Source: an uncultured Candidatus Saccharibacteria bacterium (GTDB taxonomy: Bacteria > Patescibacteriota > Doudnabacteria > UBA920). Taken from it: DNA of 64,000 nt. The position numbers and the translations under genes are program-made. Each line of letters opens with the position of its first letter. Position 1 is the first letter of the stretch. Under the pieces are notes generated by a model. It had not been told where the DNA came from. It saw nothing but the letters and a program-made list of their open reading frames with translations, and made no database searches. Below are positions 10,690 through 54,891 of the stretch, in pieces. The DNA lies in assembly GCA_964532425.1 (NCBI GenBank), contig CAZHIA010000007.1, positions 64,008-128,007 of the forward strand, given 5' to 3'.

Positions 10690-10860
10690 GCTAGCGATAG
10701 CTGCCCGACTCTCAAATTTCAAATTACAATAACCAAATCCCAAATAAATTCCAATACCCAAAATAGTCAATGTACAAATCCTTTCTGGAGTTTTGAATTT
10801 GAGATTTGGATATTATTTGGTATTTGGGATTTGGAATTTGGTGCTTATAAAAGCGGGCGC
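10690..10860. repeat. CCAAAT/ATTTGG-rich inverted-repeat element
   Basis: The arms CAAATTTCAAATTACAATAACCAAATCCCAAATAAATTCCAATACCCAAAATA and TATTATTTGGTATTTGGGATTTGGAATTTGGTG are inverted. A related element lies at 42426-42550, sharing CCAAATAAATTCCAA. Confidence 0.45.
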
Positions 10861-10974
10861 CTCCTGCCTGCCGGTAGGTAGGGTCGGCTGCCCCTACGCT
10901 GCAACCCTGGTGCAGTAGGGGTGTGCGATAACATCCCTTACCTCAGACATAGGTTTTTAAGATATAATACCTCT

Positions 10975-14140: not shown

Positions 14141-14182
14141 ATAGCCTGCGCACTCCCAAGAGGGGAGTGCGCTCTTTTAATT

Positions 14183-14342
14183 GTCATTGCGAGAAGATAA
14201 GGGCTTTGACTTATCGACGAAGCAATCTGACGCCTTTGGTGTCATCCCAAGTGTCAACCTCAGACGGACCTGCCGACGGCACGACATCCGAGGGGTCTCC
14301 TTTATAGGAAGGATTGCTTCGCTTCAGATAAGGCCCTGAAGC
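14183..14342. repeat. MITE-like element, family GTCATTGCGAG...CTCGCAATGAC
   Basis: The terminal inverted repeats are GTCATTGCGAG at 14183 and CTCGCAATGAC at 14332. The sub-terminal inverted repeats are GAAGCAATC and GATTGCTTC. It is 160 bp with no ORF. Confidence 0.6.
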
Positions 14343-14643
14343 TCGCAATGACAACGGTCTTGCAAAAAAAATCTATCTGTGCTATAATATATGTAGATTC
14401 ATTCCGGCAGAAACAAAAAACAAAAGAAAATTGAATATTTTCTTTAACACCTTGCAAAAAGGTGGTTGTTGCTGTGGAATATAAAGGTCGATAGGGCCAA
14501 TGGTCCTACAGAATCTTCTAAGAAACAAACAATAAAAACAAAATCACAAAAGAGAGGGTTCCGTCCGGCGGTGTATGCGTGGAGGGAAAGGAGTATATCC
14601 GCGCGAATACTTCTTTACGCCAGCTGTCCGGCGGTGCAAACTT

Positions 14644-23526: not shown

Positions 23527-23814
23527 ATGAACTCTTACTTCGTATATATTTTGGCGAGCCAAAGGAATGGCACATTGTATATCGGAGTGACGAATAATCT
23601 GATTAAGCGCGTTTGGCAACATAAGAATAAAGTCGTTGATGGTTTTACAAAGAAATACGGAGTTGGCATATTGGTTTATTTCGAGGAGACGTCGGAGATC
23701 GAATCAGCGATTCAAAGAGAAAAGCAGTTGAAGAAATGGAATCGTGCTTGGAAGATTAGGCTCATTGAAGAAAAGAATCCGTTTTGGAAAGATCTTTACA
23801 ACGGACTTTTATAA
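23527..23814 (+). CDS. GIY-YIG nuclease family protein
   Basis: It has the YFVYIL...GTLYIGVTNNL.RR motif of the GIY-YIG/URI domain. It is 95 aa. Confidence 0.7.
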   Translation: MNSYFVYILASQRNGTLYIGVTNNLIKRVWQHKNKVVDGFTKKYGVGILVYFEETSEIESAIQREKQLKKWNRAWKIRLIEEKNPFWKDLYNGLL

Positions 23815-24030
23815 AGAGATGTGTCATCCTCGGGCCGAGTGCATCCGAGGTCCCGGGGATCCATATGCCTGGATTCCCGCCTCCGCGGGAATGACACAGG
23901 GGAGAGCGAGAATGACAAGGGGAAAGTAGGAGTGACGCTAAAAATTATTAAGTACGTATAATGCTGGTGAGGTTAGAATTTTGACATAAAAAATACCGGA
24001 CCACTATTGTGGTCCGGTGGGGTACCGAAG

Positions 24031-24989: not shown

Positions 24990-25616
24990 ATGTCAACCCT
25001 TCAGAGAAAACCAAAAAAAGATAAACCGGTCATAGCCAAAAAAGGTCTGGTCATCGCCTACATTGGCGACGGCAAGGGTAAGACCGGTGCGGCCATGGGA
25101 CTAGCCGTGCGCGCGGCCGGTAGCGGCATGGATGTCTGCATTTTGCAATTCGTAAAATCCAAAAAACCCGAAGGCCGGAATCTGCAACCCGGCGAATGGC
25201 CGCTCTCGAATGAAATCGTTTTTTTTGACGGCATCTCGGGCAGCGGCAAGATCGGCTGCATTGATACCGAGCAGTTAGGGGAGGGGTTCGTTGGAATCTT
25301 GGGCGACAAAAAAGACCGCGACGTACACATCCGCGAAGCCCTCAGAGGGTTGGAATCGGCCCGTCAACTGATATTGTCAGGTAAGTACCAACTGATTATT
25401 TTGGATGAAATTATCTCCGCCCTGGAGCTGAATTTGCTTACCGAGCAGGATATTGTCGAGCTGATCAAAATCAAGCCTGAGATGCTTCACCTCTGTATGA
25501 CCGGCCATAAAAAATTCAAAAAGATTATTGCAGCCTGCGACCTGGTCACGGAAATGAAGATGATCAAGCATCCGTACTACGAGGGAGTGCTGGCGCAGCG
25601 GGGAATAGACTATTAA
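24990..25616 (+). CDS. cobO: cob(I)yrinic acid a,c-diamide adenosyltransferase (CobA/CobO/BtuR family)
   Basis: It has the GLVIAYIGDGKGKTGAAMGLAVRAAGSGM P-loop region and YQLIILDEI motif typical of ATP:corrinoid adenosyltransferase. Confidence 0.75.
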   Translation: MSTLQRKPKKDKPVIAKKGLVIAYIGDGKGKTGAAMGLAVRAAGSGMDVCILQFVKSKKPEGRNLQPGEWPLSNEIVFFDGISGSGKIGCIDTEQLGEGFVGILGDKKDRDVHIREALRGLESARQLILSGKYQLIILDEIISALELNLLTEQDIVELIKIKPEMLHLCMTGHKKFKKIIAACDLVTEMKMIKHPYYEGVLAQRGIDY

Positions 25617-25744
25617 AAATTGAACAAAATTGATCAAAATTAAATAAAATTGACAAAATTGCCACTGCATAGTTTCGTGGCGTCACTTGTCAAAATTATT
25701 TATCGACATTAGAATACAAGGGTAAATTAAAAAGAAAGAAGACA

Positions 25745-27707: not shown

Positions 27708-27746
27708 CATGATTGATCAGGATTGACAAGATTGTTAACCCAATTC

Positions 27747-29303
27747 ATGTTCAATCATTTAAATCATTTAAGTCTTGTCACTGTGCCCTTGTCCAAATCC
27801 AAAATTTTCATCTTCATCTGCATTTCTTTCAGTGCCGGCATCGGCATTGCTTCGGTTATTACTATCGATCGGTTCATACTCTTTGCCTGGCTGGCCGCAG
27901 CGTGTACAATATTTGCCGTATGTTTTGGTCGCCACCGGAAGACAGCGCTGCTTGCGCTGTTTTTATTTTTTGCGGGTAGCGGAGCATGGCGGCTTTCAGC
28001 GGCTGTCGTGCAAAGCGAATATCAGGACCAGATCGGCTCTTCCGTGCAAATAGAAGGGTACATTGTTGCCGAGCCGGATGTGAGGCAGGATCGACAGTAT
28101 CTAGCGTTTCGTCCTGACGGCCACCGGCAGAACATCCAGCTGTTCATGCCGTTGTATGCGGAGTATGCATACGGCGACCGGGTGGTGGTCAAAGGCAAGC
28201 TCGCTGAGGCCAAGGTCTTCGAAGATTTTGACTATCGGGGGTACTTGCAGCGGTTTAATATTTTTGCGGTCATGAACCGCCCGCAGGTGCTCGTATTAAA
28301 ATCGGGGCAAGGCAATCCCGTTATCCAGGGCCTGCTGGCGGTCAAACATGCATTCGCCGCCAATGTGGCCCAAAAGTTCCGTGAACCGCATGGTAGCCTG
28401 CTGCTCGGTATACTTATTGGGGCCAAGAAGGCCATGCCGCAGCCGGTGCTCGATGATTTTGCCGCAACCGGGACTTCCCACATTGTTGCCGTGTCCGGTT
28501 ACAATATCAGCGTCATCGTCATGGCACTCGGATATTTGGCTTACGCAGTCGGCCGGCGCTGGAGCTTTGCGGCTGCCGCGGTGTTTATTATCGGTTTCGT
28601 AATCATCTCCGGAGCTTCCGCTTCGGTCGTGCGGGCTGCTGTTATGGGCAGCCTGTTAATGATTGCAATGGCCATTGGCAGGCAATATGCCGTGGGACCT
28701 GCCATGTTTGGGGCAGCCGCGTGCATGCTCTTCATCAATCCGAAAATTCTGTTTTATGATATCGGTTTTCAGTTATCGTTTGCCGCGACCATGGGCATTG
28801 TCTACTTTATGCCGCTGCTCGAGCGCCTCACGGAACACTGGCCGAAGCTGTGGACCGTCAAGAGTAATTTGCTGGTGACATTGTCGGCCACTGCTGCGAC
28901 GTTGCCGCTTTCGCTGGCTCACTTCGGCTTGTTGAGCATTGTCGCCCCGCTCGTGAATGTCCTGGTACTACCCATCGTGCCATATGCCATGCTGTATGGA
29001 TTTTTGTCGGCAGTGCCCATTGCCGGAACCGGATTCGCTTTTGTCACGAGTCTGGTATTGACCTACATATTGACGGTCATTACGTGGTTCGCCCGGTTGC
29101 CGTTCAGCCATGTCCAAATTGCCACGAGCGGATGGGTGGCAGCGCTGCTCTATGGCGTTTTAGTGTTAATATATTTTTCGCTGCGATGGATGGCGTTTAA
29201 GCGGGCGGTTAAAATGCAAGGATGTTCGCCGATCGCTGATAAAACGCTGACAGGTACGCCTGCCTGCTCGCCTCGCTTTCGCTCTGGCGAAGCGGGCCGG
29301 TAG
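27747..29303 (+). CDS. comEC: ComEC/Rec2 family competence channel protein (no beta-lactamase domain)
   Basis: It has multiple TM helices and the competence-domain motif TGTSHIVAVSGYNISVI. An N-terminal DUF4131-like segment is present. The start is uncertain: TTG 27723 versus ATG 27747. Confidence 0.7.
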   Translation: MFNHLNHLSLVTVPLSKSKIFIFICISFSAGIGIASVITIDRFILFAWLAAACTIFAVCFGRHRKTALLALFLFFAGSGAWRLSAAVVQSEYQDQIGSSVQIEGYIVAEPDVRQDRQYLAFRPDGHRQNIQLFMPLYAEYAYGDRVVVKGKLAEAKVFEDFDYRGYLQRFNIFAVMNRPQVLVLKSGQGNPVIQGLLAVKHAFAANVAQKFREPHGSLLLGILIGAKKAMPQPVLDDFAATGTSHIVAVSGYNISVIVMALGYLAYAVGRRWSFAAAAVFIIGFVIISGASASVVRAAVMGSLLMIAMAIGRQYAVGPAMFGAAACMLFINPKILFYDIGFQLSFAATMGIVYFMPLLERLTEHWPKLWTVKSNLLVTLSATAATLPLSLAHFGLLSIVAPLVNVLVLPIVPYAMLYGFLSAVPIAGTGFAFVTSLVLTYILTVITWFARLPFSHVQIATSGWVAALLYGVLVLIYFSLRWMAFKRAVKMQGCSPIADKTLTGTPACSPRFRSGEAGR

Positions 29304-29499: not shown

Positions 29500-30288
29500 A
29501 TGTCAAACAAAACTCTCAGCATCATCGTAGCTGTGATTGTTATCCTGTTCGCAGGAGGAATATACGGCTACCGCGTCTATTCGAACAGGCAGGCAGCGGA
29601 AGTTGAAGGAACCGAACCGGAAGCCAGTACTCCACCCGGATCGACGGAACTCCAACAAGCGGCCCAGCAGCAAGCGACCACGACACCTCAACAACCAACT
29701 AATCAACCAGCCATGAATCAGCCCACTGCCGGCAACTGCCAACGCAATTTTAATCCGGACACATTAAAGAATGCCAAAGTTGACATTGCCAATCGCACCG
29801 TCGAGATGGACATTAAAGATTTTGGCAAAGTCCAGGTGCAGCTGTACGACAAGGATGCACCTAAGACCGTGGAGAACTTTTTGCGGCTGACTAATGCCGG
29901 TTACTATAACTGCCTGACCTTCCACCGCATCGCCCAGGACTTCGTCATTCAAGGAGGGGACCCGACCGGAACCGGTTCGGGAGGGGATAGCGCCTTCGGC
30001 GGTGAATTTGCGGACGAGCTAAATCCGGAAACGCCGAGCTATAAAGCCGGGTATGTTAAAGGCGTCCTGGCCATGGCTAATCGCGGACCGAATACCAACA
30101 CCAGCCAGTTCTTCATTATGCTAGCAGACCGTCCGTTGCCGAATAACTATACTATTTTCGGAAAAGTCATAGCCGGTCAGGATGTCGTCGACAAGATCGG
30201 CAAAGTGCCGGTTACTCCTCAAATGGGTCCGACCGATGGAGCTCCCAAAGTTCCGGTGGTTATGGAGAGTGTTAAGATTATCAAGTAG
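29500..30288 (+). CDS. peptidyl-prolyl cis-trans isomerase, cyclophilin type, with N-terminal membrane anchor
   Basis: It has the FHRIAQDFVIQGGDPTGTGSGG and SQFFIML cyclophilin motifs and an N-terminal TM helix. Confidence 0.85.
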   Translation: MSNKTLSIIVAVIVILFAGGIYGYRVYSNRQAAEVEGTEPEASTPPGSTELQQAAQQQATTTPQQPTNQPAMNQPTAGNCQRNFNPDTLKNAKVDIANRTVEMDIKDFGKVQVQLYDKDAPKTVENFLRLTNAGYYNCLTFHRIAQDFVIQGGDPTGTGSGGDSAFGGEFADELNPETPSYKAGYVKGVLAMANRGPNTNTSQFFIMLADRPLPNNYTIFGKVIAGQDVVDKIGKVPVTPQMGPTDGAPKVPVVMESVKIIK

Positions 30289-30379
30289 CATTTAACATTT
30301 AACACCTGACATTTAACCTTTGACAGCTGCAATTGCAGGAAGTCAAATGTCACATGTCATATGTCAAAGGTTTTCTAAA
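30289..30379 (+). promoter_or_regulatory. conserved leader element, copy B (upstream of ndk)
   Basis: It has ACATTTAAC repeated three times, CCTTTGACA, the heptamers ATGTCAC ATGTCAT ATGTCA, and then GTCAAAGGTTTTCT before the ATG. CCTTTGAC and GTCAAAGG can pair. Confidence 0.5.
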
Positions 30380-30913: not shown

Positions 30914-30984
30914 GGGCGGGCATTGCCCGCCCTTTAAAGTTTCAAAAACAGCCATATTTATTAATAATATGGCTGTTTTTTGGT
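30914..30984 (+). terminator. tandem terminators after ndk
   Basis: A GGGCGGGCATTGCCCGCCC hairpin is followed by AAAAACAGCCATATTTATTAATAATATGGCTGTTTTTT. Confidence 0.65.
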
Positions 30985-31049
30985 TATTGACATTTTGCCT
31001 AAAAAATGCTATAATTATAGGAAAATTTGAACTGGAGGGTTTAAATCAT

Positions 31050-31295
31050 ATGTCTCGCAAAGAGAAGATTTTTGAAGCCGCGGTGTACAGTTTAATCGCG
31101 GCTAGTGTCCTTTTCATCGGCCTCTTGGCAATCACTGCCCCTCACAATCCGCAGCTGGCCAACCGCCCGGCTGCGACTACGGCCGTCCAGAAGAAAGAAG
31201 CACCGAAAAGACAAGGTATGTCTGACGCGGCCATCGTCGGCGCCACGCTCGGCGGCCCTGAAGGTATGATGGCAGCCGAACTGCTCTTTAACTAG
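31050..31295 (+). CDS. hypothetical small membrane protein
   Basis: It is 81 aa with a GGAGGG RBS and one TM helix. Confidence 0.4.
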   Translation: MSRKEKIFEAAVYSLIAASVLFIGLLAITAPHNPQLANRPAATTAVQKKEAPKRQGMSDAAIVGATLGGPEGMMAAELLFN

Positions 31296-31396
31296 TTCGG
31301 TACGAGACATTCGCACCAGTCCCGAACATCGCTTCGGGACCATTCTTGAGCCTATTTGTGCAAACGGGCTCAAGAGTGAACAGGAGGAATTTTAGA
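31296..31396 (+). promoter_or_regulatory. conserved structured leader, copy 1 (paralog array)
   Basis: The hairpin GTCCCGAA...CTTCGGGACC is followed by TTCTTGAGC-hairpin-GCTCAAGAGTG and then AGGAGG. The same architecture appears at 32348-32441 and 32901-33008. Confidence 0.45.
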
Positions 31397-31894
31397 ATGG
31401 AAAACCGGAATGAGTTGCCAGCAGGCTTTGATGACGGCTTTTGGGCCCTCGTCGGTGTTTGTTTTTTAGTCTCCCTGCTCTTCTGGATCGGTGTATGGGA
31501 CTTCCAGGAGTATCTGAAGTCTTTCAGCACCGAGGCAATCCACGTGAACGCGGTTGTCGCCGGCAAGGGCGACATACAGCGCTTTAACCTTGAGCAGGGT
31601 GCCACGACGGGCACTGCTGTGGCTGTAGGTACAGCCTTGGCCGGTGGCAGCAAGAAAGCCGTTGCGATCAATGGCATCGCGAGCACACTCACCTCGGGGT
31701 TTCTTTCTGCCGAAGGCTGCCGCATGCCGCTCACTGTAGAAGGTGAACCCAAGCTCCTCAAAGCGCCGGAAGAAGCATGCAAATCCGGTAAGTTTCCGGC
31801 CGGTACTGCTGTGACCATCAAAAAGGTCACGGAGTACCGTAGTCTCGGTGATCCGCACACCAAGACCGTCAACAAGGTCTGGTACGAGTGGTAA
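31397..31894 (+). CDS. membrane-anchored small protein, paralog family member
   Basis: It has an AGGAGG RBS, an N-terminal TM and a beta-rich domain. Its leader is conserved with the next two paralogs. Confidence 0.45.
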   Translation: MENRNELPAGFDDGFWALVGVCFLVSLLFWIGVWDFQEYLKSFSTEAIHVNAVVAGKGDIQRFNLEQGATTGTAVAVGTALAGGSKKAVAINGIASTLTSGFLSAEGCRMPLTVEGEPKLLKAPEEACKSGKFPAGTAVTIKKVTEYRSLGDPHTKTVNKVWYEW

Positions 31895-31927
31895 CCAGGT
31901 ATTCAATCGGATTTCCGGAGGCATGAT

Positions 31928-32347
31928 ATGACCGATTTCTTGAATGAATTATTCGAATCAATCTCGTTCATGTGGTCTGATGGTGCGCCTGGCAAGGTAG
32001 TTACGGTTTTGGTCCTAGCCGTATTAGTGATACTTGCTGGATTGGTGGCGTGGGGGCTATACGCGCTGCTGGAGTCGGCGTTCATATCGACCCGCGCTGC
32101 CATTGGTACGGTGGTAAAGAAGGAATATCAACCGGAGACCAGTGACTACATTTATATCGATGGAATTCCGTATCCTTCCACTTCCGGCCCCTCTTATAAC
32201 CTCCTTGTTGAAACGCAAGGGGAATATGGGTGGATTTCCGTAACGCCGGAGTTCTATACCAAGGTCAAGGTCGGCAGACAAGTCCGCGTCGCTATCGGAC
32301 ACGGCCGGCTTACCGGTAAGTTGCAAGTAAAGCAGATTTATGGCTAA
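31928..32347 (+). CDS. membrane-anchored small protein, paralog family member
   Basis: An N-terminal TM is followed by a domain ending ...GKLQVKQIYG, similar to the 33009 protein, which ends ...EIKVIQIYA. Confidence 0.45.
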   Translation: MTDFLNELFESISFMWSDGAPGKVVTVLVLAVLVILAGLVAWGLYALLESAFISTRAAIGTVVKKEYQPETSDYIYIDGIPYPSTSGPSYNLLVETQGEYGWISVTPEFYTKVKVGRQVRVAIGHGRLTGKLQVKQIYG

Positions 32348-32441
32348 CCAGCCGTCGTCTGTATCCCCAAGCTGAGCGCTTGGGGACCTTTCTCCAGTCT
32401 CCCGAAGGGGGATTGAAGATTGGTACCCTTAAGGAGGGAAT
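32348..32441 (+). promoter_or_regulatory. conserved structured leader, copy 2
   Basis: It reads CCCCAAGC...GCTTGGGGACCTTTCTCCAG...GATTGAAGATTGGTAC...AAGGAGG. Confidence 0.45.
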
Positions 32442-32900
32442 ATGGATATGATTTTTTCGATTGTTGTCGGACTCGTGATCTACGTGCTTGGGTATTGGCT
32501 CATCGGGCTTCCTATGGCCCGAAAAGGCCTGGAAGTATGGAAGAGGAGCTACCCGACCGGGAGCAATGGCGGATTTTGGGGATTCATTCTTTTCCCGGTG
32601 ATGAGTTCCGAGGGAAATGTGGGTAGCATCTGTCAATCGACGTTTTTGATGAGCACGATTGGGAGCTTTGACCTATTCAGCTGTTGGGAAAATGAACGCC
32701 TTGAAGCGGAACACAAGTACATTACCGCTTCGGCTGCGTTTTGGCCATCGCGTATAGCGTTCAATCTGATCGCGATGGCGGTCATGACCGTCTTAGGCCT
32801 ATTGGGTCTGGTCTTAATGGCCTTCATTGAAGGTCTGCCGGCACTGGCCTCAAAGGCGTACAAGTCCGTGACCGGCCAGCGGGCTACGACAAGCAGTTGA
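32442..32900 (+). CDS. hypothetical multi-pass membrane protein
   Basis: It has an AAGGAGG RBS and 3-4 TM helices. Confidence 0.45.
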   Translation: MDMIFSIVVGLVIYVLGYWLIGLPMARKGLEVWKRSYPTGSNGGFWGFILFPVMSSEGNVGSICQSTFLMSTIGSFDLFSCWENERLEAEHKYITASAAFWPSRIAFNLIAMAVMTVLGLLGLVLMAFIEGLPALASKAYKSVTGQRATTSS

Positions 32901-33008
32901 CGTCAATCGGACAACGGCACCCGAAGCTTCGGCTTCGGGACCTTTCTTGAGTCCACAAGACTTGTGGGTTCAAGATTGGTACAGAAACCAAAAAAGGAGG
33001 ACTTGAAT
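32901..33008 (+). promoter_or_regulatory. conserved structured leader, copy 3
   Basis: It reads CCCGAAGCTTCGGCTTCGGGACCTTTCTTGAG...TTCAAGATTGGTAC...AAGGAGG. Confidence 0.45.
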
Positions 33009-33494
33009 ATGAAGAGCGGATCTGATTTTGATTCCGTGTGGTCTGCCCTGCGTGAAATGGTTTCGGTCCTCTATGGACTGGTAGTTACATACGCGCTGTT
33101 TATCGCGGGTATCTACCAAAGTGGAGGATGGTGGCGGGTGGTCGCGGTTGTTGTAGCAATCGCTACTCTTTTGCTGATCGTGGCGTGCGTGATCGCATTC
33201 AGCGTGATGCTGGACAAGGCTTGGTTGCCGGTCCGGCAGGCAAAAGCCATACTGCTCCGCAAAGACAGTCCGGTAGGCTCGGCTTCGGTGGAATATGCAG
33301 GCCAAAGGGTACAGGTGGGCGTCATCGTCGAGGTGACCGGATTCAACCTATTATTTGGCCTCCCGGAAGGCAGGGCCTGGGTTGAGGTGCCGGTTGAGGT
33401 CTACCAATACCTTGCGCTCGGCAAATACTACCGCGTGGACTATACGCGGACCCGCTGGGGCGGGGAGATCAAGGTCATCCAAATCTACGCTTAG
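33009..33494 (+). CDS. membrane-anchored small protein, paralog of 31928..32347
   Basis: It has an AAGGAGG RBS and a TM followed by a domain with a conserved C-terminal ...IQIYA. Confidence 0.45.
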   Translation: MKSGSDFDSVWSALREMVSVLYGLVVTYALFIAGIYQSGGWWRVVAVVVAIATLLLIVACVIAFSVMLDKAWLPVRQAKAILLRKDSPVGSASVEYAGQRVQVGVIVEVTGFNLLFGLPEGRAWVEVPVEVYQYLALGKYYRVDYTRTRWGGEIKVIQIYA

Positions 33495-33571
33495 GCCGGT
33501 ACGAAGGTGCCGGTCTTTTCTTATTGCTGTTTTTTCAGCGGTCTGGTAGAATGGTCCTTCAAGGAGGAACC

Positions 33572-33865
33572 ATGAATTTGCATCTGCCTACTTGGTGGGA
33601 CATTTTCAGCCAGGCGGGGATACTCCTCAGTGTAGTCGGATATCTCATGCTAGCCAAAAAGAACAGATGGGGCTGGGTTATTGGCCTCGCTTCGCAGCCG
33701 TTCTGGTTTTATTCATCCATTACCAACCATCAGATTGGGATCATAATAAACACGGTATTCTTTTCCGCTGCCCAGCTCTACGGTATCTGGAAATGGTTCG
33801 GTCACAATCCGGAATGCGAGGGAAAAAAGCTGGTTCTTCAGACTGCCAAAGACGAGGTTGTGTAG
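33572..33865 (+). CDS. hypothetical small membrane protein
   Basis: It has a promoter-like TAGAAT box and an AAGGAGG RBS, and three predicted TM helices. Confidence 0.4.
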   Translation: MNLHLPTWWDIFSQAGILLSVVGYLMLAKKNRWGWVIGLASQPFWFYSSITNHQIGIIINTVFFSAAQLYGIWKWFGHNPECEGKKLVLQTAKDEVV

Positions 33866-34081
33866 TCATGTTTGAAGAACCGGATACACCTCCGCAAAAT
33901 CGTTTTCCGGCGGGACTGGCGCTTCCCACAATTTTGGCAGTGCTCGCTATTGCGGCGATCGTGGTTTTCTATGCCGCGGCCCATTGATGCGCGTACCTCT
34001 TGCCTTGCCTTGTAATCGGGGCAGGGCTTTTATAAACAACAAAGACCGGTTTTGAACCGGTCCCTGCTTCAGCGTTAATTC

Positions 34082-35916: not shown

Positions 35917-36135
35917 TCAAATGGCGATCGAGGGAATGTCGGCGGAGAACAACGGGCGCTGCTTGCGGGCGTCCTTAGCTGCACCGGCGACACTGTACTT
36001 AAAAATGCGGATGTGCTTACGCGGCGCTTTCTGCTTACCGCTTAGTCTGCCGGTGTGAAAGTCCGAGTAGATCCGGTGCAGCGGTACCCCAAGCTGCTCG
36101 GCAGCTTCCTTAGGCGGGATTCCCTGCTTGGCCAT
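35917..36135 (-). CDS. helix-turn-helix DNA-binding protein
   Basis: It has an AAGGAGG RBS and the HTH-like segment KEAAEQLGVPLHRIYSDFHTGRL. Its own rho-independent terminator lies downstream on the minus strand. Confidence 0.5.
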   Translation of the reverse strand: MAKQGIPPKEAAEQLGVPLHRIYSDFHTGRLSGKQKAPRKHIRIFKYSVAGAAKDARKQRPLFSADIPSIAI

Positions 36136-36188
36136 GATATACCTCCTTGGTATAATTGGTGTAGTAATTTCAAGCATTTATAATTGGC

Positions 36189-36269
36189 GTCATCCTGAGT
36201 CCCGAATGCATCTGAGGGCGAAGGATCTCAAATGAGATTCTTCGGTCGTCTGACTTCCTCAGAATGACG
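36189..36269. repeat. MITE-like element, variant termini GTCATCCTGAG...CTCAGAATGAC
   Basis: It is an 81-bp element with the internal inverted repeat GAAGGATCTC...GAGATTCTTC, and sits immediately upstream of fpg. Confidence 0.5.
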
Positions 36270-36287
36270 CTGTGTAAACAAATCCCT

Positions 36288-37214
36288 ATGCCAGAGCTTC
36301 CTGAAGTTCAAACCATTGTAACCGAACTGAATAGAAAACTCAAGGGCCGGAAAATTCAGGCCGTGAAAGTCAATGCCCCGAAGATGATCAGTATCGGCCC
36401 CCATACGGTCAGTAATGTCAGAACAGTTAAAAGTTCTCAAGTTATCAAGTTTCAAGAACTGCTCAAAGGGTTAAAGATTGAAAGTGTCAGGCGCCGGGCC
36501 AAGCTTTTGATTTTTGATTTGTCTAGCCCACTTTCCATGCTGGTACATTTAAAAATGACCGGACAGTTTATTTTCGAGGACCAGGCCCAGTACAAAAAAA
36601 CTGGCGGCAAGTATCGCATTCTCAACAAATTGAATGCGCCTCTCGTGGAATTGCCTTCTAAACATACTCATGTCGTGTTTGATTTTACTGACGGATCGCA
36701 TTTATATTTTAATGACGTGCGGAAGTTCGGGTACTTGAAACTGGTGCCGGATGACGAGATAGATAAGGTAAAAGATCTCAAGGGGTACGGGCCTGAACCA
36801 CTGGATAAAAAGTTCACTTATGGTCTCTTTGCGGAAATTATGAAGCGGCGGCCGAACGGCAAAATCAAGCAGGTACTTATGGATTCAATGCTGATTGCCG
36901 GCATCGGAAATATTTATAGCGACGAGATCCTTTTTCATGCCAGGGTTCGTCCGGTGCGCACTATTTCATCATTGACTGAAAAAGAATTGAAGGCTGTCTA
37001 TAAGTATATCCCGATCGTACTCAAGAAGGGGATTGAGGCCAAAGGTTCTTCGGTCGGTGATTTTATCCGCACTGACGGTAGTTGGGGGCAGATGGGTAAA
37101 TTCCACTACGTCTATGGCCGCGGCGGCCTACCCTGTAAAAAATGCGGCACCACCATCGAAACCGTTAAGATGAACGGCCGGACAGGGAGTTTTTGCTCTC
37201 ATTGCCAAAAATAA
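36288..37214 (+). CDS. mutM: formamidopyrimidine-DNA glycosylase (Fpg/Nei family)
   Basis: The N-terminus is MPELPEV, with the catalytic Pro2. It has an H2TH domain and a C-terminal zinc finger CKKCG...CSHCQ. Confidence 0.8.
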   Translation: MPELPEVQTIVTELNRKLKGRKIQAVKVNAPKMISIGPHTVSNVRTVKSSQVIKFQELLKGLKIESVRRRAKLLIFDLSSPLSMLVHLKMTGQFIFEDQAQYKKTGGKYRILNKLNAPLVELPSKHTHVVFDFTDGSHLYFNDVRKFGYLKLVPDDEIDKVKDLKGYGPEPLDKKFTYGLFAEIMKRRPNGKIKQVLMDSMLIAGIGNIYSDEILFHARVRPVRTISSLTEKELKAVYKYIPIVLKKGIEAKGSSVGDFIRTDGSWGQMGKFHYVYGRGGLPCKKCGTTIETVKMNGRTGSFCSHCQK

Positions 37215-37226
37215 TTCGCTTCTATT

Positions 37227-37339
37227 GTCATTGCGAGCCCCGCCCTTTTTGCATCAAAAGGGTGGGGCGAAGCAATCTTTCCACATTGTGAAATAATAGA
37301 TTGCTTCGTTATTCGGATGCACTCATTCCTCGCAATGAC
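37227..37339. repeat. MITE-like element, same family
   Basis: It shows the same terminal and sub-terminal inverted-repeat architecture, GTCATTGCGAG...GAAGCAATC...GATTGCTTCG...CTCGCAATGAC, over 113 bp. Confidence 0.6.
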
Positions 37340-37370
37340 AGTTGTAGGGGCGGGTCTGTGACCCGCCCAA

Positions 37371-42425: not shown

Positions 42426-42550
42426 CAATACATTCATCAAAATTCCAAATCACAAATCACAAATTCCAAATAAATTCCAAACTTCAAATTCAAATGAGTA
42501 AGCAGTTTTGGAGTTTGGAAATTGAAAATTATTTGTAATTTGATACTTGG
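42426..42550. repeat. CCAAAT/ATTTGG-rich inverted-repeat element (groES-groEL spacer)
   Basis: It reads AAATTCCAAATCACAAATCACAAATTCCAAATAAATTCCAAACTTCAAATTC...TTTGGAGTTTGGAAATTGAAAATTATTTGTAATTTGATACTTGGTACTTGGAATTTT. Confidence 0.45.
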
Positions 42551-42577
42551 TACTTGGAATTTTTCCGAAGGAATATT

Positions 42578-46821: not shown

Positions 46822-46829
46822 CAAGCGAA

Positions 46830-46870
46830 AAATCGGGAAAAGGCGAAGCCTGACCCGATTTTTATTATAA
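46830..46870 (+). terminator. intrinsic terminator
   Basis: The hairpin AAAATCGGG...CCCGATTTT is followed by TATTAT. Confidence 0.55.
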
Positions 46871-46926
46871 TTTATGATTATTTATGGCTTAATTAAGCCA
46901 TATTTTCAGTATTGGCGGGATAACTC

Positions 46927-46955
46927 TTGACAAAAAACAGCTTTTGGTGTATACT
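46927..46955 (+). promoter_or_regulatory. consensus sigma70-type promoter with no downstream ORF
   Basis: It reads TTGACA, a 17-nt spacer, then TATACT, and is preceded by an AT-rich UP-like region and the palindrome TGGCTTAATTAAGCCA. Confidence 0.5.
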
Positions 46956-47728
46956 GTTGAGTTAAATAAAAAATTGTAGTTTAAATAACGCTCTTACCAA
47001 TCATATAGCTGTGCCTCGAATGTTTTACAGGAGACAATCGGGTGCACGGTTTACGTCCGGCACTGGTTTCTGTGAGTTCAGTATAAACCAGGTCAATTAT
47101 TTCGATTACTAGTTGGTATTTATGTTAGCTTGCAGAAACTAGTGCTGGACACCATCATGCTCCTAATAGGGCTTAAACCCTTTTGGGGGCGCGATAAAGC
47201 CGTGTATTCTATACAAGAATAACTTTTCCAGAGATTCTCCTGTATAAAATATACGGTTTTTTGTTTAGGAGTAATCTCTAATATACGAATCTAGCACAAA
47301 TATACGAATACAGCACACCATCATTTATTTCTTAGAGCGGCCAATAGCTATTTGAATATTTGCGCTGTATTAGCCATATTCGAGATCACTATAATTGTTT
47401 CCAGTATTCCGGATCGGAGAAGGTCAACTTTATGGGTCCGATACGACCCACCGCCTCATCTCTGATCCAGAGTGGTGGAAATAATATCAATGTTGTGTCA
47501 TTCCGGCCCCGGAGCCGGAATCCATGCTCCCTTATCGTTCCTTACTATTCACTAAGCTTTGTTTACTAAAATCCGTAGTTATCCGTAGATTGGCATTCAT
47601 TGGTAGATTTGTAAATTTTCTCTACCATCGTGGGCCTAACAGGAAGGCAAACATTTTAGGATCGAGACGATCCGTCGGCCTCATCCTTTTGCTTAGACCC
47701 ACAATGGTGGATGAAAATCTTCCTCTGT

Positions 47729-47790
47729 GTCATTCCGAACTTGTTTCGGAATCCAGAGAAATGGATCCTGAAATGAATTCAGGATGACAC
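47729..47790. repeat. MITE-like element variant (GTCATTCCGAAC...TCAGGATGAC)
   Basis: It contains paired hairpins, TTCCGAAC-ttgt-TTCGGAATCC and GGATCCTGAAATGAATTCAGGATGAC. Confidence 0.4.
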
Positions 47791-47923
47791 TATAGGTTCT
47801 TGTCTGTATTGCAGAACCGATTTAAGTCGGTTCTGCAATTCAGGGAAGGACGTAGTCCTGGCAAGGCCAGGACGCAGTGATCCGGAACTGAAGTGAACAC
47901 TACAAGCCACAGGAGGCTAACAA

Positions 47924-48733: not shown

Positions 48734-48778
48734 TCCGAATGTAACAATGAGAGTGGCACTGCCTAGCAGTGCCACTCT

Positions 48779-49761
48779 CAACCATCTAATTCACTATTTC
48801 TCTAATTCACTAATTTACTAGCTAGTTTGTTTCTTCCATCATGGGCCAGAGCAGAGAAGGTTAACCAAATTTGGGTCGCTATGACCCTTCGGCCTCGTCA
48901 CTGCTGTGACCCATAATGGTAGAAGTAAAACACAATTTTAGAAGGGAAGATTGCCGCGCTCGGATGCACCTGCCTACCGGCAGGCAGGCTCGCTCGCAAT
49001 GACATGTAAGACTTTGTCATTGCGAGGAGAAAAGGACTTTAACTTTTCGACGACTTGTCCGCTGTAGCCTTGGCGAAGGTGGAAGCAATCTTTCGGTGTC
49101 ATTCCGGAGACCACGAAGCGAAGCGGAGAGTCATCCGGAATCCATTCTCTATAGTTGCCATACTATTCACTAGTCACTGACCACTATTTTGTATCCACCA
49201 TTGTGGATCTAAGCACGGAAGGTAAAATTTTTATGTCGCCTGTGGCGGCACCGACCTCATCCGAATGCTTTGATTCACAATAGCGGATGCAATCCGCTGG
49301 AGCCAGCCTGCTGGGCCAGGCTCGCATTCATAAAATGAAAATAAAGAATAGAGAATAGCCCCTCCGCGCACCAGGAGGGGGTGGATCACCGGGACTCGAA
49401 CGAGTGACAACGAATCCATAAAGGACGATTCGAGGATCAAGGACCATACATGAGCGTGCATGGGGCGTTTAAGTCCCATAACCGAGCGGTGAAAGCTGCT
49501 CAAATATTTAACCCTGCCGGGCGGCGACAATTATCCCCGGCATAAAGCCCTGAAAAGCAGGAGGAGGAAAAAGGACATGCGCTACAAGTTTCGTTTATGA
49601 ATCTCTACGGGTCTAGACCGGGACTGACCCAACCGGTTGCTGGCTCCGGCGGGAGATCACGGCGTATCCAAAACCACGCGCTGGGCAAGCCTCGCTTGCC
49701 CTTCTTTCTGAGCTAGCCTATCTGTAATGTTTAGATAGGCAGCTGAGAAGGAAGGAGGATT
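48779..49761. other. ORF-free structured region (~1 kb) rich in family repeats
   Basis: No credible ORF was found. It contains REP and MITE family copies and the hairpins CCCCTCC...GGAGGGGG and GGGTCGCTATGACCC. It carries the inverted partner of CCACAATGGTGGAT, whose other copy is at 47700. Confidence 0.4.
48993..49150. repeat. composite of MITE-family termini (head-to-head CTCGCAATGAC/GTCATTGCGAG, then GTCATTCCGGAG...CATCCGGAATCC)
   Basis: The family motifs are juxtaposed, and it shares the CGCTGTAGCCTTGGCGAAGGTGGAAGCAATC block with the element at 50280-50310. Confidence 0.4.
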
Positions 49762-50007
49762 GTGAAGAAAGAGAAAAAAAGTGACGCTCCGAGAGAGAGG
49801 AGCGTTTGGGCGGCCCGTTACGGCCACCAAATCGAAAGGTTTGCGGGATCGGCTTTCCCTCGCCGGCGACGGCAGGATGAGCCATCAGAGTTCGAGAGTG
49901 AAGTGACTGCGGTCGAAGACCGGCATCTCTACGGAGCTCGCTCGAACCGACGCCCCTCGCTTGAGGAGCTCGAGAACCCCTTCGCGAATCTTAACCAGCC
50001 CCACTAG
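49762..50007 (+). CDS. hypothetical small charged protein
   Basis: It has a GTG start preceded by GAAGGAAGGAGG and is 81 aa. Confidence 0.4.
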   Translation: MKKEKKSDAPRERSVWAARYGHQIERFAGSAFPRRRRQDEPSEFESEVTAVEDRHLYGARSNRRPSLEELENPFANLNQPH

Positions 50008-50150
50008 GGCGCGCAGCGGGGGAGCCTTCCAAAAGCTCCCCCACATCACTTTGGGTTTCAAGGGTAAACATTTTATGGGTCGCTTTGACCCACCGGCACC
50101 ATTTGAAACTCAGTGTGATGCGGATGCATATTTAAAGATTTGTTTTATTT

Positions 50151-50238
50151 GTCATTGCGAGGGAGTGCATCCGACCGAAGCAATCTTTTATGGTAAAGAT
50201 TGCCACGCTCCTCGGCTGCACTCGGAGCTCGCAATGAC
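50151..50238. repeat. MITE-like element, same family
   Basis: It reads GTCATTGCGAGGGAGTGCATCCGACCGAAGCAATC...GCTGCACTCGGAGCTCGCAATGAC over 88 bp. Confidence 0.55.
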
Positions 50239-50449
50239 ATAGGGATGCAGTACTCTCCTGCAATATTAGGAGGAGTGGCTGCGACCTGTCCACCGTAGCC
50301 TCGGCGAAGGCGGGAGCAGACGAGGTGGTAAATGTCCTTAACTCTGTGGCAAGAAGTTTGGCGGTAACTCGGTAATCCGGTTTATTGCCAAGCTCCTTCC
50401 CGCAAGGGAAAAAATCAAAGCTGTTCATTTACAAGGAGAATACACAAAA

Positions 50450-51151: not shown

Positions 51152-51498
51152 TGCAGGCCATTGGCCTGCTCTTGTGCGGACAATATAACAGGAGGAACGT
51201 TATGCGTTAAAAAGCCAGCGTAGTTCAAGAAACTACATTTGAATAAAACGGCGGCGAAAAGGTTTTACAGGTAGACCTTGCGGAAAGCCGGAAATTTCCG
51301 CTCAATATGATCTGTCCGTGGCGGGTAGCGCTGGGAGAGCATGCTCTCCCTTCTCTTCAGAGTTCATTTTCATCTTTTGGCGTCATTCTGAGCCGAGGCA
51401 TCCGAGGCGAAGAATCTCTCATCGAAAGTGAATTGTGAAGAGAAGGAATTCTCGTCAGACTTAGGGTCTGATTATATCGAATCAAGGAGGCATTTGCC

Positions 51499-52470: not shown

Positions 52471-52934
52471 AAACATGTGTGCGGTCACCTTCGGTGACCG
52501 CCTCTCTTCCGAACTCGTTTATGCGGGTTGGGAAGAGGGGATGATATTGATCGAAATTCTGTGCAGTGCAGGCCCGCTTCGCTATCGCTTGAGCGAGGCG
52601 AGCCCTTGGCCTGCTCCCCGTGTCATTGCGATTTTAGAGGTAAATTCCCATGATGAAGCGATCTAAACCTCGTGTTAGGTAAGATTGCTTCGTCGTTCGG
52701 CTGCACTCACTTCTCGCAATGACAAACAGCGGGTAATGTAGTGCAGGTCCTCTGACTACGCACAAGGCTACGTCGTACTAGTCGGCCTGCCAGTGTAGGG
52801 GCGGATAGTATCCGCCCGAAAGAAGGGAAGATAATATCTTCCCCTTACATAACGCAATAGATTTATTGCCAGAATTGAAAACTTAAAGAATTGAGTTTAT
52901 AATTCTGTCAGTATATAAACCTGTAGGGGGATTC

Positions 52935-53405: not shown

Positions 53406-53638
53406 ACCTTACGTCTCCTTTTCCCCTCTAACCTGTCGGCGATGTGCTGATACGTACGTAATGGGGCAACCCTAGCCGTATTTACCAGCATCCTGTCTCG
53501 CCGGCGGGTTTGAGGGAATGACTATTGAACAAAATTAAATAAAATTAATTAAAATTAAGTAAAATTGGAACGCAAGGGCTGCTCAGAGCAAGTTCAATAT
53601 TGTAATATACAAGTCTTCCGATATGGGAAGTCTTTTTT

Positions 53639-54636: not shown

Positions 54637-54807
54637 ATGGGAGTTCCCAAGAAGCATAAGACCAGAAGCGGTCGCGACCAGCGGCGCAGCCATCATGCCT
54701 TGAAAGCCACCAGTTTTGCCACTTGCAAGAACTGCGGCAGTGCAACCATGCCCCACCTTCCCTGTAAGAACTGCGGGCACTACAAAGGCAGAAAAGTCAC
54801 GAAATAA
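54637..54807 (+). CDS. rpmF: 50S ribosomal protein bL32
   Basis: It is 56 aa and shows KKHKTRSGRDQRRSHHAL...C.NCG......CKNCGHYKGRKV. Confidence 0.8.
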   Translation: MGVPKKHKTRSGRDQRRSHHALKATSFATCKNCGSATMPHLPCKNCGHYKGRKVTK

Positions 54808-54891
54808 GATAAACATTTGACAATTAACCTTTGACATTTGACCACTGTGATCGAGTTACATGTCACATGTCAAAGGTCAAAGGTTTTCTTT
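54808..54891 (+). promoter_or_regulatory. conserved leader element, copy C (upstream of nusB)
   Basis: It has ACATTTGACA, CCTTTGACATTTGACC, ATGTCACATGTCA and GTCAAAGGTCAAAGGTTTTCT before the ATG. Its architecture matches copies A and B. Confidence 0.5.

Follow-up and report, generated by a model that had tools for sequence, protein, structure and literature searches.

The short intergenic inverted-repeat elements found in a 64,000-nt stretch of contig CAZHIA010000007.1 from an uncultured bacterium (hereafter the window, meaning the whole stretch analyzed) had originally been predicted to form a family resembling miniature inverted-repeat transposable elements (MITEs). Our analysis indicates, with a probability of roughly 0.78, that these elements are dimers of a small DNA hairpin repeat belonging to the superfamily of YGTC-tagged repetitive extragenic palindromes (REPs) and Ssn-related motifs (SRMs), the latter being associated with the small GIY-YIG nuclease Ssn. 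One class of these repeats, with an ATTGC/GCAAT stem, together with its own clade of Ssn proteins, is an undescribed member of the described CGTC-REP/SRM-Ssn system.

The ATTGC-class unit has the structure 5'-(T/C)GTC-ATTGC-GA-(inner stem-loop)-GAA-GCAAT-C(T/C)-3', with the inner stem-loop variable in both sequence and length. The perfect 11-bp terminal and the sub-terminal inverted repeats noted in the original prediction are indeed present, but they are not independent features: because the ATTGC of GTCATTGCGAG pairs with the GCAAT of GAAGCAATC, they make up a single hairpin unit, one providing its 5' half and the other its 3' half. What had been taken for a MITE consists of two such units in an inverted, head-to-head (HH) arrangement, with the GTC tags pointing outward and a spacer of 8-84 nt in the window, so that inverted repeats appear to be present at the ends (11 bp) and sub-terminally (9 bp). 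ATTGC units measure 35-75 nt in the window, with a range of 26-80 nt in other genomes, and both halves of the stem vary jointly between classes (ATTGC/GCAAT, ATTCT/AGAAT, ATCCT/AGGAT, ATTCCGG/CCGGAAT, and ATTCCCGC/GCGGGAAT), always in the form AT....AT, such that the stem opens with an A-T and a T-A pair. The GTC tag is invariant. Among 261 distinct units, it is preceded at position -1 by T in 62% and by C in 24%, and the units of the window read TGTC or CGTC. The 3' tail of the ATTGC class is C, followed by T (80%) or C (18%) and then by C (65%); the ATTCC-type units of the window end in CC, and the published consensus in CCA. Altogether, the window contains seven HH dimers, one tail-to-tail (TT) pair, one head-to-tail (HT) pair, and single units (Table 1).

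The family is real, sharply bounded, and non-coding, and has sequence-variant relatives. With both strands counted and dinucleotide shuffles of the window as the background, the 11-mer GTCATTGCGAG has nine exact matches (0.02 expected) and GAAGCAATC has seven (0.84 expected), and a generic finder, defined as GTC, a stem of 5 or more bp that opens with AT, and C in this order, yielded 22 matches, compared to 2.1 +/- 1.4 in the shuffles. Approximately five of these 22 matches are weak ones inside coding sequence, with stems of 5-7 bp and long loops, the remainder being intergenic units; the unit at 23823-23861 was entered by hand because of a wobble pair in its stem. Every convincing unit is intergenic. 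Full inverted elements with GTCATTGCGAG ends are located at 37227-37339 and 50151-50238, exactly as originally placed, and at 14183-14352. The start of the latter element had been assigned correctly and its end had not, because position 14342, the end given before, is the start of the right terminus; therefore, the elements span 88-170 bp rather than 88-160 bp. Two stretches previously regarded as fragments turned out to belong to complete units: 48993-49026 comprises the GTC-tagged ends of two tag-to-tag units, 48949-49003 (-) and 49016-49090 (+), and 52690-52725 corresponds to the unit 52683-52723 (-), which has a degenerate partner at 52622-52663 (+) and thus forms a fourth inverted dimer. 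The relatives with variant termini have the same anatomy (36189-36268, 51382-51416, 23823-23895, 47729-47788, and 49098-49142) and are joined by a further variant unit, 47497-47522, that had been overlooked. Plain terminator stems or copies with undefined ends would look different: the boundaries are defined, the units lack T-runs, and separate terminators adjoin the elements.

When folded as single-stranded DNA, the dimers are more stable than shuffled sequences (z = -4.2 to -8.7), and those single units that possess a true inner hairpin adopt the predicted structure (z = -2.7 and -4.8). Among 34 equal-length units from other genomes, double-sided changes were detected at five of the six inner-stem pairs, with 43 double-sided covariation cells compared to 17.4 in shuffles (none of the 500 shuffles reached 43) and a covariation score of 0.255, as opposed to 0.04-0.12 with slid partners. 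The GA/GAA purine internal loop is conserved in the ATTGC class, and many short units have apical loops of the GCGAAGC or GCGNAAGC type with GA/AG flanks. Internal loops, apical loops, and flanks of these kinds are unusually stable in DNA and therefore appear to favor structure at the DNA level.

To survey the ATTGC class in other genomes, we scanned one genome per species (GTDB representatives) for exact matches to the pattern GTCATTGCGAG-N(12-42)-CGAAGCAATCT. An exact ATTGC-type unit was found in at least 120 contigs, with titles from ~25 phylum-level groups among the matches listed; by our own arithmetic, ~2 chance matches would be expected for 22 specified bases in this collection. The groups among the matches listed include Chloroflexota, Patescibacteria, Planctomycetota, Bacteroidota, Desulfobacterota, Pseudomonadota (including a Tisiphia symbiont of the Rickettsiales), Bacillota, Spirochaetota, Omnitrophota, Acidobacteriota, Atribacterota, Elusimicrobiota, Fibrobacterota, and Campylobacterota, along with others. 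The 246 units in the 120 loci from these matches form 69 HH, 28 HT, and 11 TT pairs, with a median HH spacer of 23 nt. Clustering of the open reading frames (ORFs) located within 1.5 kb of the units in the same loci revealed a single specific recurrent family, a GIY-YIG protein of ~95 aa; the other recurrent clusters represent generic families or spurious ORFs of the repeats themselves, and no IS-like or RAYT-like ORF recurs near the units in these 120 loci. In four loci, from Planctomycetota (L016), Bacillota (L035), a Campylobacteraceae metagenome-assembled genome (MAG; L109), and Phycisphaerae (L110), the GIY-YIG gene lies between inverted ATTGC units, with the nearest unit ~6-25 nt from the ATG and ~8-55 nt past the stop codon. 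These cassettes are equivalent to the originally described "MITE" with an ORF in the spacer.

The nucleases flanked by ATTGC units form a distinct clade that is characterized by the motif EKQIKGGSR (hereafter KGGSR). This clade is very large (7,983 database proteins at E <= 1e-10), and proteins of this clade from Bacillota, Cyanobacteria, Dehalococcoidia, Desulfobacteraceae, WOR-3, and KSB1 share 70-80% identity. Four genomic contexts fetched through the protein rather than through the repeat (Desulfobacteraceae, a gene with an HsdR neighbor, Calothrix NIES-2100, and Dehalococcoidia) all contain ATTGC units beside the gene. Thus, in eight of eight independent loci, a KGGSR-type ssn gene is adjoined by ATTGC units, and in the four fetched through the repeat, the gene is located between an inverted pair.

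The window itself encodes an Ssn protein of a different clade, with the motif KKWNR, which is 45-55% identical to the KGGSR-type proteins. This 95-aa protein matches only PF01541 in Pfam; searches with its sequence against the PDB produced no match, and those against NCBIfam only sub-threshold matches to group I intron endonucleases. Over 91% of its length, the window protein shares 61.6% identity with a Neisseria gonorrhoeae GIY-YIG ORF with nine NTS-like repeats within 1,458 bp around it, presumably ssnA, in a record that carries no annotation (L246, NZ_CP119142.1; PLSDB contains two 2.17-Mb N. gonorrhoeae "plasmid" records that are evidently chromosomes). Because of this similarity to an NTS-embedded gonococcal ORF, the ATTCC-type units and the ssn gene of the window are best regarded as ordinary members of the published Ssn system. 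In the window, an ATCCT-type and a ATTCCCGC-type unit form an inverted dimer that begins 7 nt past ssn, and two terminus remnants come next. In a reverse test of this clade, we analyzed the loci of the 80 closest metagenomic relatives for units within 150 nt of the gene. A (+) unit was present upstream in 51 of the 80 loci, a (-) unit downstream in 52, and both in 41. The unit density amounts to 5.1/kb beside the gene and 0.34/kb elsewhere, a 15-fold difference (p = 4e-71), and the orientation is strongly skewed, with 52 (+) versus 7 (-) units upstream and 56 (-) versus 14 (+) downstream. The stems at these loci are ATTCC (98 units) and ATCCC (15), with few others and just one ATTGC in all. 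As the co-occurrence in the reverse tests of both clades demonstrates, each Ssn clade has its own hairpin class: KKWNR is associated with ATTCC/ATCCC and KGGSR with ATTGC. Viral contigs contained only distant Ssn relatives (38-50% identity), accompanied by other hairpin classes or by none.

These results bear directly on the original assignment. A classical MITE is an internally deleted insertion sequence (IS) that is mobilized in trans by a DDE transposase, which here would recognize the 11-bp terminal inverted repeats. The perfect inverted-repeat termini of 11-12 bp and the size of 88-170 bp fit such an origin, and like bacterial MITEs (Correia/NEMIS, RUP, and Nezha), the elements are short, non-coding, multicopy, intergenic, and bounded by inverted repeats. 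However, target-site duplications (TSDs) were sought at every full dimer and none was found: the flanks of the three full ATTGC dimers (..TTAATT/AACGG, ..TCTATT/AGTTG, and ..TTATTT/ATAGG) contain no direct repeat, and the flanking T...A does not count as a duplication because it merely extends the palindrome TGTCAT...ATGACA. Furthermore, no transposase or integrase, and no Y1 enzyme or RAYT either, was matched by Pfam among the 50 ORFs of the window that were scanned (many of which have no family at all), and the single recurrent protein near the units in the 120 loci is the GIY-YIG nuclease, with no parent IS encoding a DDE transposase. Single units and HT/TT arrangements are not expected of a transposon defined by its terminal repeats, these "terminal repeats" being halves of hairpin units that also occur alone, and the presence of the same termini in ~25 phyla, among the matches listed, would be unusual for an IS/MITE pair. 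We therefore consider a classical MITE highly improbable. The MITE-like label is right insofar as the elements, themselves non-coding, are related to a cassette that carries a nuclease gene, given that in other genomes this gene lies between an inverted pair of such units; TSDs, a transposase, and a role as promoters are not supported.

Mobilization by a RAYT (an IS200/IS605-type Y1 transposase), as in REP/REPIN doublets, is very unlikely as well. The design is shared, with a small enzyme recognizing a tagged hairpin in single-stranded DNA, a bracketed gene, numerous gene-less singlets and inverted doublets, and an intergenic location, and GTAG-tagged REP-like hairpins also occur in the window. 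However, the tag of the units is YGTC rather than GTAG and the nuclease fold is GIY-YIG rather than HUH/Y1; no RAYT-like ORF recurs beside the units among the matches listed; and a study of CGTC-tagged REPs found no RAYT flanked by such repeats (Di Nocera, De Gregorio & Rocco 2013, BMC Genomics 14:522, PMC3733652). Transposition has been shown for IS200/IS605 and not for Ssn cassettes.

The same study described the CGTC-tagged REPs, which have a CGTC or TGTC tag, stems of 8-9 bp starting with AT, loops of 4-5 nt, and a short 3' tail, occur mostly as HH dimers in several phyla, include the dRS3 repeats of Neisseria and RPE-4/RPE-6 of Rickettsia, and "apparently lack a dedicated transposase" (PMC3733652). 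The ATTCC-type units of the window, with an 8-bp stem and a 4- or 5-nt loop, fit this description. The ATTGC units resemble the CGTC-tagged REPs in the unpaired YGTC tag, the A-T/T-A start of the stem, the predominance of HH pairs, the intergenic location, probably the short pyrimidine-rich 3' tail, the spread over many phyla, and the presence of GTAG-tagged REPs in the same genome, but differ in the 5-bp basal stem, the GA/GAA internal loop, and the variable second stem-loop. Unlike the CGTC-tagged REPs as of the 2013 paper, with which no enzyme was associated, the ATTGC class goes with an Ssn clade. The link to a nuclease was established when NTS (CGTCATTCCCGCGMAVGCGGGAATCYRG), an oriented form of dRS3, and related SRM hairpins were found to flank ssnA, a gene for a single-domain, cd10448-type GIY-YIG protein of 94 aa, across bacteria, with a motif near 71% of the ssnA homologs and on both sides of 42% (Chenal et al. 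2025, Nat Commun 16:2388, PMC11893778). Binding of SsnA to the hairpin requires single-stranded DNA, which is cut immediately 5' of the hairpin, whereas double-stranded DNA and RNA are not substrates; the Neisseria and Wolbachia Ssn/NTS pairs have been characterized biochemically, and homologs differ in specificity (PMC11893778). The system modulates natural transformation in N. meningitidis, the NTS-ssnA-NTS layout is IS-like, and the Ssn enzymes were introduced as the first site-specific nucleases for single-stranded DNA (PMC11893778). Similar to this system, oriented (C/T)GTCAT-hairpin repeats lie, inverted, on both sides of a ~95-aa single-domain GIY-YIG gene, with many solo copies elsewhere, and the clade of the window is flanked on both sides in 51% of the loci (41/80), compared to the published 42%. 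The differences are that the ATTGC unit is bipartite, with an apical region that tolerates insertions and a separate Ssn clade as its putative enzyme, and that the host here is an uncultured bacterium resembling the candidate phyla radiation (CPR) rather than a symbiont or pathogen. A full-text literature search for GTCATTGCGAG and related 10-mers, which did not extend to the supplementary tables of the Ssn paper, retrieved unrelated primers only, and no literature linking GIY-YIG proteins to such repeats was found beyond PMC11893778.

Several observations weigh against assigning the elements to the Ssn-related superfamily. The published SRM pattern, HGTCWYN(0-2)YYVSBRHN(0-5)WNVSBRGN(0-2)RNCYNB, matches neither any unit of the window, including the NTS-like unit at 23872-23895, nor the ATTGC consensus; the pattern does match the canonical NTS and is a search heuristic, not a biological definition. 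The original prediction held that the window contains no cognate transposase; for a cognate enzyme of any kind, this stands as far as the ATTGC class is concerned, given that no KGGSR-type ssn was found in the 64 kb; by contrast, the ssn gene at 23527-23816, which pairs with the ATTCC-type relatives, is present. That gene is flanked by units only downstream, with 4 nt separating it from the DHFR gene upstream. In five units of the window that share the 12-nt loop GAGTGCATCCGA, the inner stem is only 2-4 bp, and three of these units, when folded alone, do no better than shuffles (z = -0.1 to +0.6). The position-wise conservation of the termini is partly due to sampling, because the search pattern fixed the termini of the cross-phylum set; units fetched through the protein are free of this bias. 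Finally, no exact empty site or TSD was found, so that mobility itself is still hypothetical. In three syntenic relatives (Fpg 72-75% identical), there are no units around fpg, the intergenic DNA being too diverged to define an empty site, and two contigs identical to the window (L001 and L002) show no allelic difference.

GIY-YIG is the classic fold of homing endonucleases, a point in favor of a homing variant in which the dimers came first, as genomic targets, and a free-standing ssn gene resembling those of homing endonucleases invades their spacers. In this case, the dimers would not have originated by deletion. Indeed, in the four cassette loci, ssn occupies the spacer of a dimer, ~6-25 nt of which precede the start and ~8-55 nt follow the stop, and gene-less dimers possess spacers, too (8-84 nt in the window; median 23 nt elsewhere). 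However, the DNA-binding domain that homing GIY-YIG enzymes possess is missing from Ssn, which leaves double-stranded DNA uncut (PMC11893778), homing leaves the multiplication of the dimers themselves unaccounted for, and no gene-containing and gene-less alleles of one locus were found. Homing is thus an unlikely explanation.

Under the assignment to the Ssn-related superfamily, a unit would fold into a hairpin whenever the DNA becomes single-stranded, during replication, transformation, or repair, as the covariation and DNA folding suggest. The cognate Ssn of ~95 aa would then bind the hairpin together with the oriented GTC flank and cleave this strand within a few nucleotides of the tag, on its 5' side, as shown for the Neisseria and Wolbachia pairs (PMC11893778) and, by analogy, predicted for the ATTGC class, next to which the KGGSR clade would presumably cut. 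The pairing of enzyme and hairpin is clade-specific, as shown by the co-occurrence reported here. The unit(+)-ssn-unit(-) cassette, an architecture observed at the loci described above, would be the gene-bearing version of the element and the short dimers its gene-less counterparts. The dimers may have arisen by deletion of the gene, or the cassettes by its insertion, and the gene-less dimers are predicted to derive from, or be served by, the coding cassette. The ATTGC dimers in this genome are probably orphan or trans-served copies, because the matching ssn clade is not encoded in the 64-kb window and several units no longer fold alone.

The high identity of the proteins across phyla, together with the identical termini, suggests frequent horizontal transfer, and a selfish element appears to fit better than a host regulator. 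A stronger proposal, that unit(+)-ssn-unit(-) is an autonomous mobile element of a new mechanistic type, with the nuclease driving the spread of both the cassette and the gene-less ATTGC dimers through horizontal movement on a very large scale, draws on the near-identical termini in ~25 phyla, among the matches listed, and on the 70-80% identity of Ssn between Bacillota, Cyanobacteria, Chloroflexota, and Desulfobacterota; we regard it as a tentative and rather doubtful possibility. There may also be a second layer, in which small modules (a hairpin plus TAAACTCCG, or other palindromes) insert specifically into the apical loops of units, as suggested by an indel at the strain level. The unit preceding ssn has a CGAAG loop in L227 (960-991), L231, and L235, whereas the near-identical L230 (514-592) carries a 52-nt module in its place, with TAGACTCCG at the end; this 47-nt indel inside a unit loop is the sole strain-level polymorphism found. 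Long-form units carrying a hairpin plus TAAACTCCG are found repeatedly and belong to the ATTGC as well as the ATTCC class (also in L110, L133, L138, L139, and L166), and these loop modules may constitute a second small element that targets unit loops. Tandem 5' half-sites are common as well, with GTCATTGCGAG or GTCATTCCCGC followed, after 10-20 nt, by a full unit (L016:5022-5068, L109:5140-5200, L147, L149, and L169), as are solo terminus remnants, exemplified in the window by 23909-23935; both may be footprints of cutting and rejoining.

A primary role at the RNA level, in which dimers transcribed within 5' or 3' untranslated regions serve as mRNA stabilizers, processing sites, or attenuators and the link to ssn is incidental, has to be weighed against the position of the elements relative to genes. 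We scanned for promoters and terminators around the elements at 14, 36-37, and 48.9-52.7 kb, leaving out those at 23.8 and 47.5-47.8 kb. The first dimer (14183-14352) is preceded by a terminator (14148-14172) and followed by a strong promoter-like site (14360-14388). A promoter-like site (36128-36156) precedes the fpg-upstream dimer, which ends 20 nt short of the fpg start codon (36288) and likely belongs to the 5' leader, and the second dimer (37227-37339) directly follows the fpg stop codon and precedes a GTAG-tagged hairpin/terminator (37348-37368). Because of these positions, the latter two dimers are probably transcribed, so that transcription through some elements is likely, and the dimers would fold as RNA, too. 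However, the units have no T-runs, separate canonical terminators stand beside the first and second dimers, and an Rfam scan of the whole window at gathering thresholds detected a single tRNA and no repeat. The loop motifs discussed above are of the DNA-stable kind, the orientation-specific flanking of ssn is left unexplained, and SsnA binds neither RNA nor double-stranded DNA (PMC11893778). Thus, a primary role in RNA is quite improbable, although the dimers might exert a secondary effect on expression. The suggestion that the elements supply promoters found no support, as neither consensus sigma-70-like sites nor promoter-like hexamer pairs are present inside any element of the three scanned intervals.

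These repeats should be annotated as Ssn-related hairpins rather than as MITEs. The KGGSR-type Ssn and the motif YGTC-ATTGC-GA...GAA-GCAAT-C represent a new candidate enzyme-site pair. The value of Ssn proteins as tools depends on a catalog of such pairs, to which the ATTGC pair would add an architecture unlike the published motif, and because the published SRM pattern misses the ATTGC motif, it underestimates the diversity of the family. The broad phylogenetic spread and the pairing of clades with hairpin classes strengthen the still unproven view that the cassettes are selfish mobile elements rather than host regulators; the interest would be higher only if the cassette proved to be a GIY-YIG-driven mobile element moving through single-stranded DNA.

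Table 1. Hairpin repeat units and the ssn gene in the window
Feature	Position	Strand	Evidence or remark
ATTGC-class unit, left half of dimer 1 (14183-14352)	14183-14227	+	GTCATTGCGAG...CGAAGCAATC; folds as ATTGC/GCAAT plus inner stem
ATTGC-class unit, right half of dimer 1, spacer 84 nt	14312-14352	-	DNA fold z = -2.7
ssn, 95-aa single-domain GIY-YIG nuclease, Ssn family	23527-23816	+	PF01541 only, E = 1.5e-16
ATCCT-class unit, one G-T pair in stem, 7 nt past ssn stop codon	23823-23861	+	loop contains GAGTGCATCCGA
ATTCCCGC-class unit, NTS/dRS3-like (GTCATTCCCGCGGAGGCGGGAATC), inverted dimer with 23823-23861	23872-23895	-	
Two solo terminus remnants (..GAATGAC, ..GAGTGAC)	23909-23935	-	direct reading
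ATCCT/AGGAT-class unit, left half of dimer upstream of fpg	36189-36227	+	dimer DNA fold z = -4.2
ATTCT/AGAAT-class unit, right half of dimer upstream of fpg	36236-36268	-	
ATTGC-class unit, 13-bp inner hairpin, left half of dimer 2 (37227-37339)	37227-37277	+	DNA fold z = -4.8 (unit), -8.7 (dimer)
ATTGC-class unit, loop GAGTGCATCCGA, right half of dimer 2, spacer 21 nt	37299-37339	-	
Single ATTCCGGC-class unit, 8-bp stem, 5-nt loop	47497-47522	+	
ATTCCGAA-class unit, left half of dimer, 8-bp stem, 4-nt loop	47729-47753	+	
ATCCTGAA-class unit, right half of dimer, 8-bp stem, 4-nt loop	47764-47788	-	
ATTGC-class unit, tag-to-tag with 49016-49090	48949-49003	-	loop holds nested palindrome CCTGCC..GGCAGG
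ATTGC-class unit, long form, 75 nt	49016-49090	+	first 40 nt 88% identical to 14181-14220
ATTCCGG-class unit, long form, tandem with 49016-49090	49098-49142	+	
ATTGC-class unit, left half of dimer 3 (50151-50238)	50151-50185	+	dimer DNA fold z = -6.3
ATTGC-class unit, right half of dimer 3, spacer 12 nt	50198-50238	-	
Single ATTCT/AGAAT-class unit	51382-51416	+	
Degenerate ATTGC-class unit, left half of dimer 4	52622-52663	+	GTCATTGCGAT...GAAGCGATC
ATTGC-class unit, right half of dimer 4	52683-52723	-	

The surroundings of the elements are CPR-like in their gene profile. Window genes named by Pfam encode HisRS, HIT, YqeY, FtsA, FtsZ, a PMT-type glycosyltransferase, a deoxyhypusine-synthase-like protein, ComEC, PPIase, NDK, GroES/EL, NusB, and a lamin-tail-domain protein, and the annotation of matching contigs adds RNR and DHFR (L001/L002, identical to the window) as well as RelA/SpoT and Fpg (syntenic L242-L244). 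The named relatives of Fpg come solely from MAGs labeled Candidatus Doudnabacteria, at 68-70% identity. The ComEC competence channel gene (27723-29303) is located 4 kb from ssn, which may be relevant given that the Neisseria SsnA acts on incoming single-stranded transforming DNA.

The repeats, being very common, generate spurious ORFs and N-terminal extensions. For instance, the longest fpg ORF (36264-37214, 316 aa) begins inside a repeat unit, the true start being at 36288 (MPELPEV, 308 aa). Many Fpg homologs (P0127, P0128, P0129, P0139, and others) are 316-345 aa long, which suggests the same over-extension of the start codon in their annotation; in the single case read, that of P0127 (L242), there is no YGTC unit upstream of fpg, and a repeat origin of the extensions is not confirmed.

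The GAGTGCATCCGA loop, allowing for up to two mismatches, occurs at 23837, 36204, 37313(-), 48960(-), 50163, 50212(-), and 52697(-) and is common to four stem classes; it was not found in 1.16 Mb of loci from other genomes. Such sharing could reflect a lineage-specific constraint or gene conversion between units. Another palindrome family, CCTGCCTACCGGCAGGCAGGC, has four copies, at 10863, 34084, 53793, and 48969-48989, the last nested in the apical loop of the ATTGC unit 48949-49003. A 21-nt repeat, CCACCATTGTGGRTCTAAGCA, is present at 47690-47710(-) and 49195-49215(+), ~20-50 nt from units of the ATTCCGG and ATTCCGAA types, inside two ORF-poor stretches that contain several units (46822-47923, 1.1 kb, and 48734-50449, 1.7 kb) and in which Rfam is blank.

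The GTAG-tagged REP-like hairpins fall into two families. The first, TGTAGGGGC plus a GC-rich palindrome, has seven copies compared to 0.47 expected (10683, 27435(-), 37343, 38662, 38800, 41896, and 52794), and the second, GTAGTGCAGGCC plus a palindrome, has five compared to 0.24 expected (4013, 27337(-), 51148, 52563, and 52738). The block at 30969-33987 (3.2 kb), between the NDK and RelA/SpoT genes, comprises six small ORFs without a Pfam family, three of which are preceded by GCTTCGGGACCNTTCTYGAG; because NDK directly precedes the RelA fragments in the syntenic L243, this block is either an insertion or a local expansion of a gene family. The window also contains AT-rich intergenic arrays, namely 10-nt periodic ATTGAACAAA-like tracts (25599-25658 and 53514-53573), ACATTTGACATGT-type arrays (1120-1198, 30288-30376, and 54801-54889), and AAATTCCAAATCACAAAT arrays (10714-10841 and 42428-42574), several of which lie just 5' of genes, such as groES, nusB, and the HIT gene.

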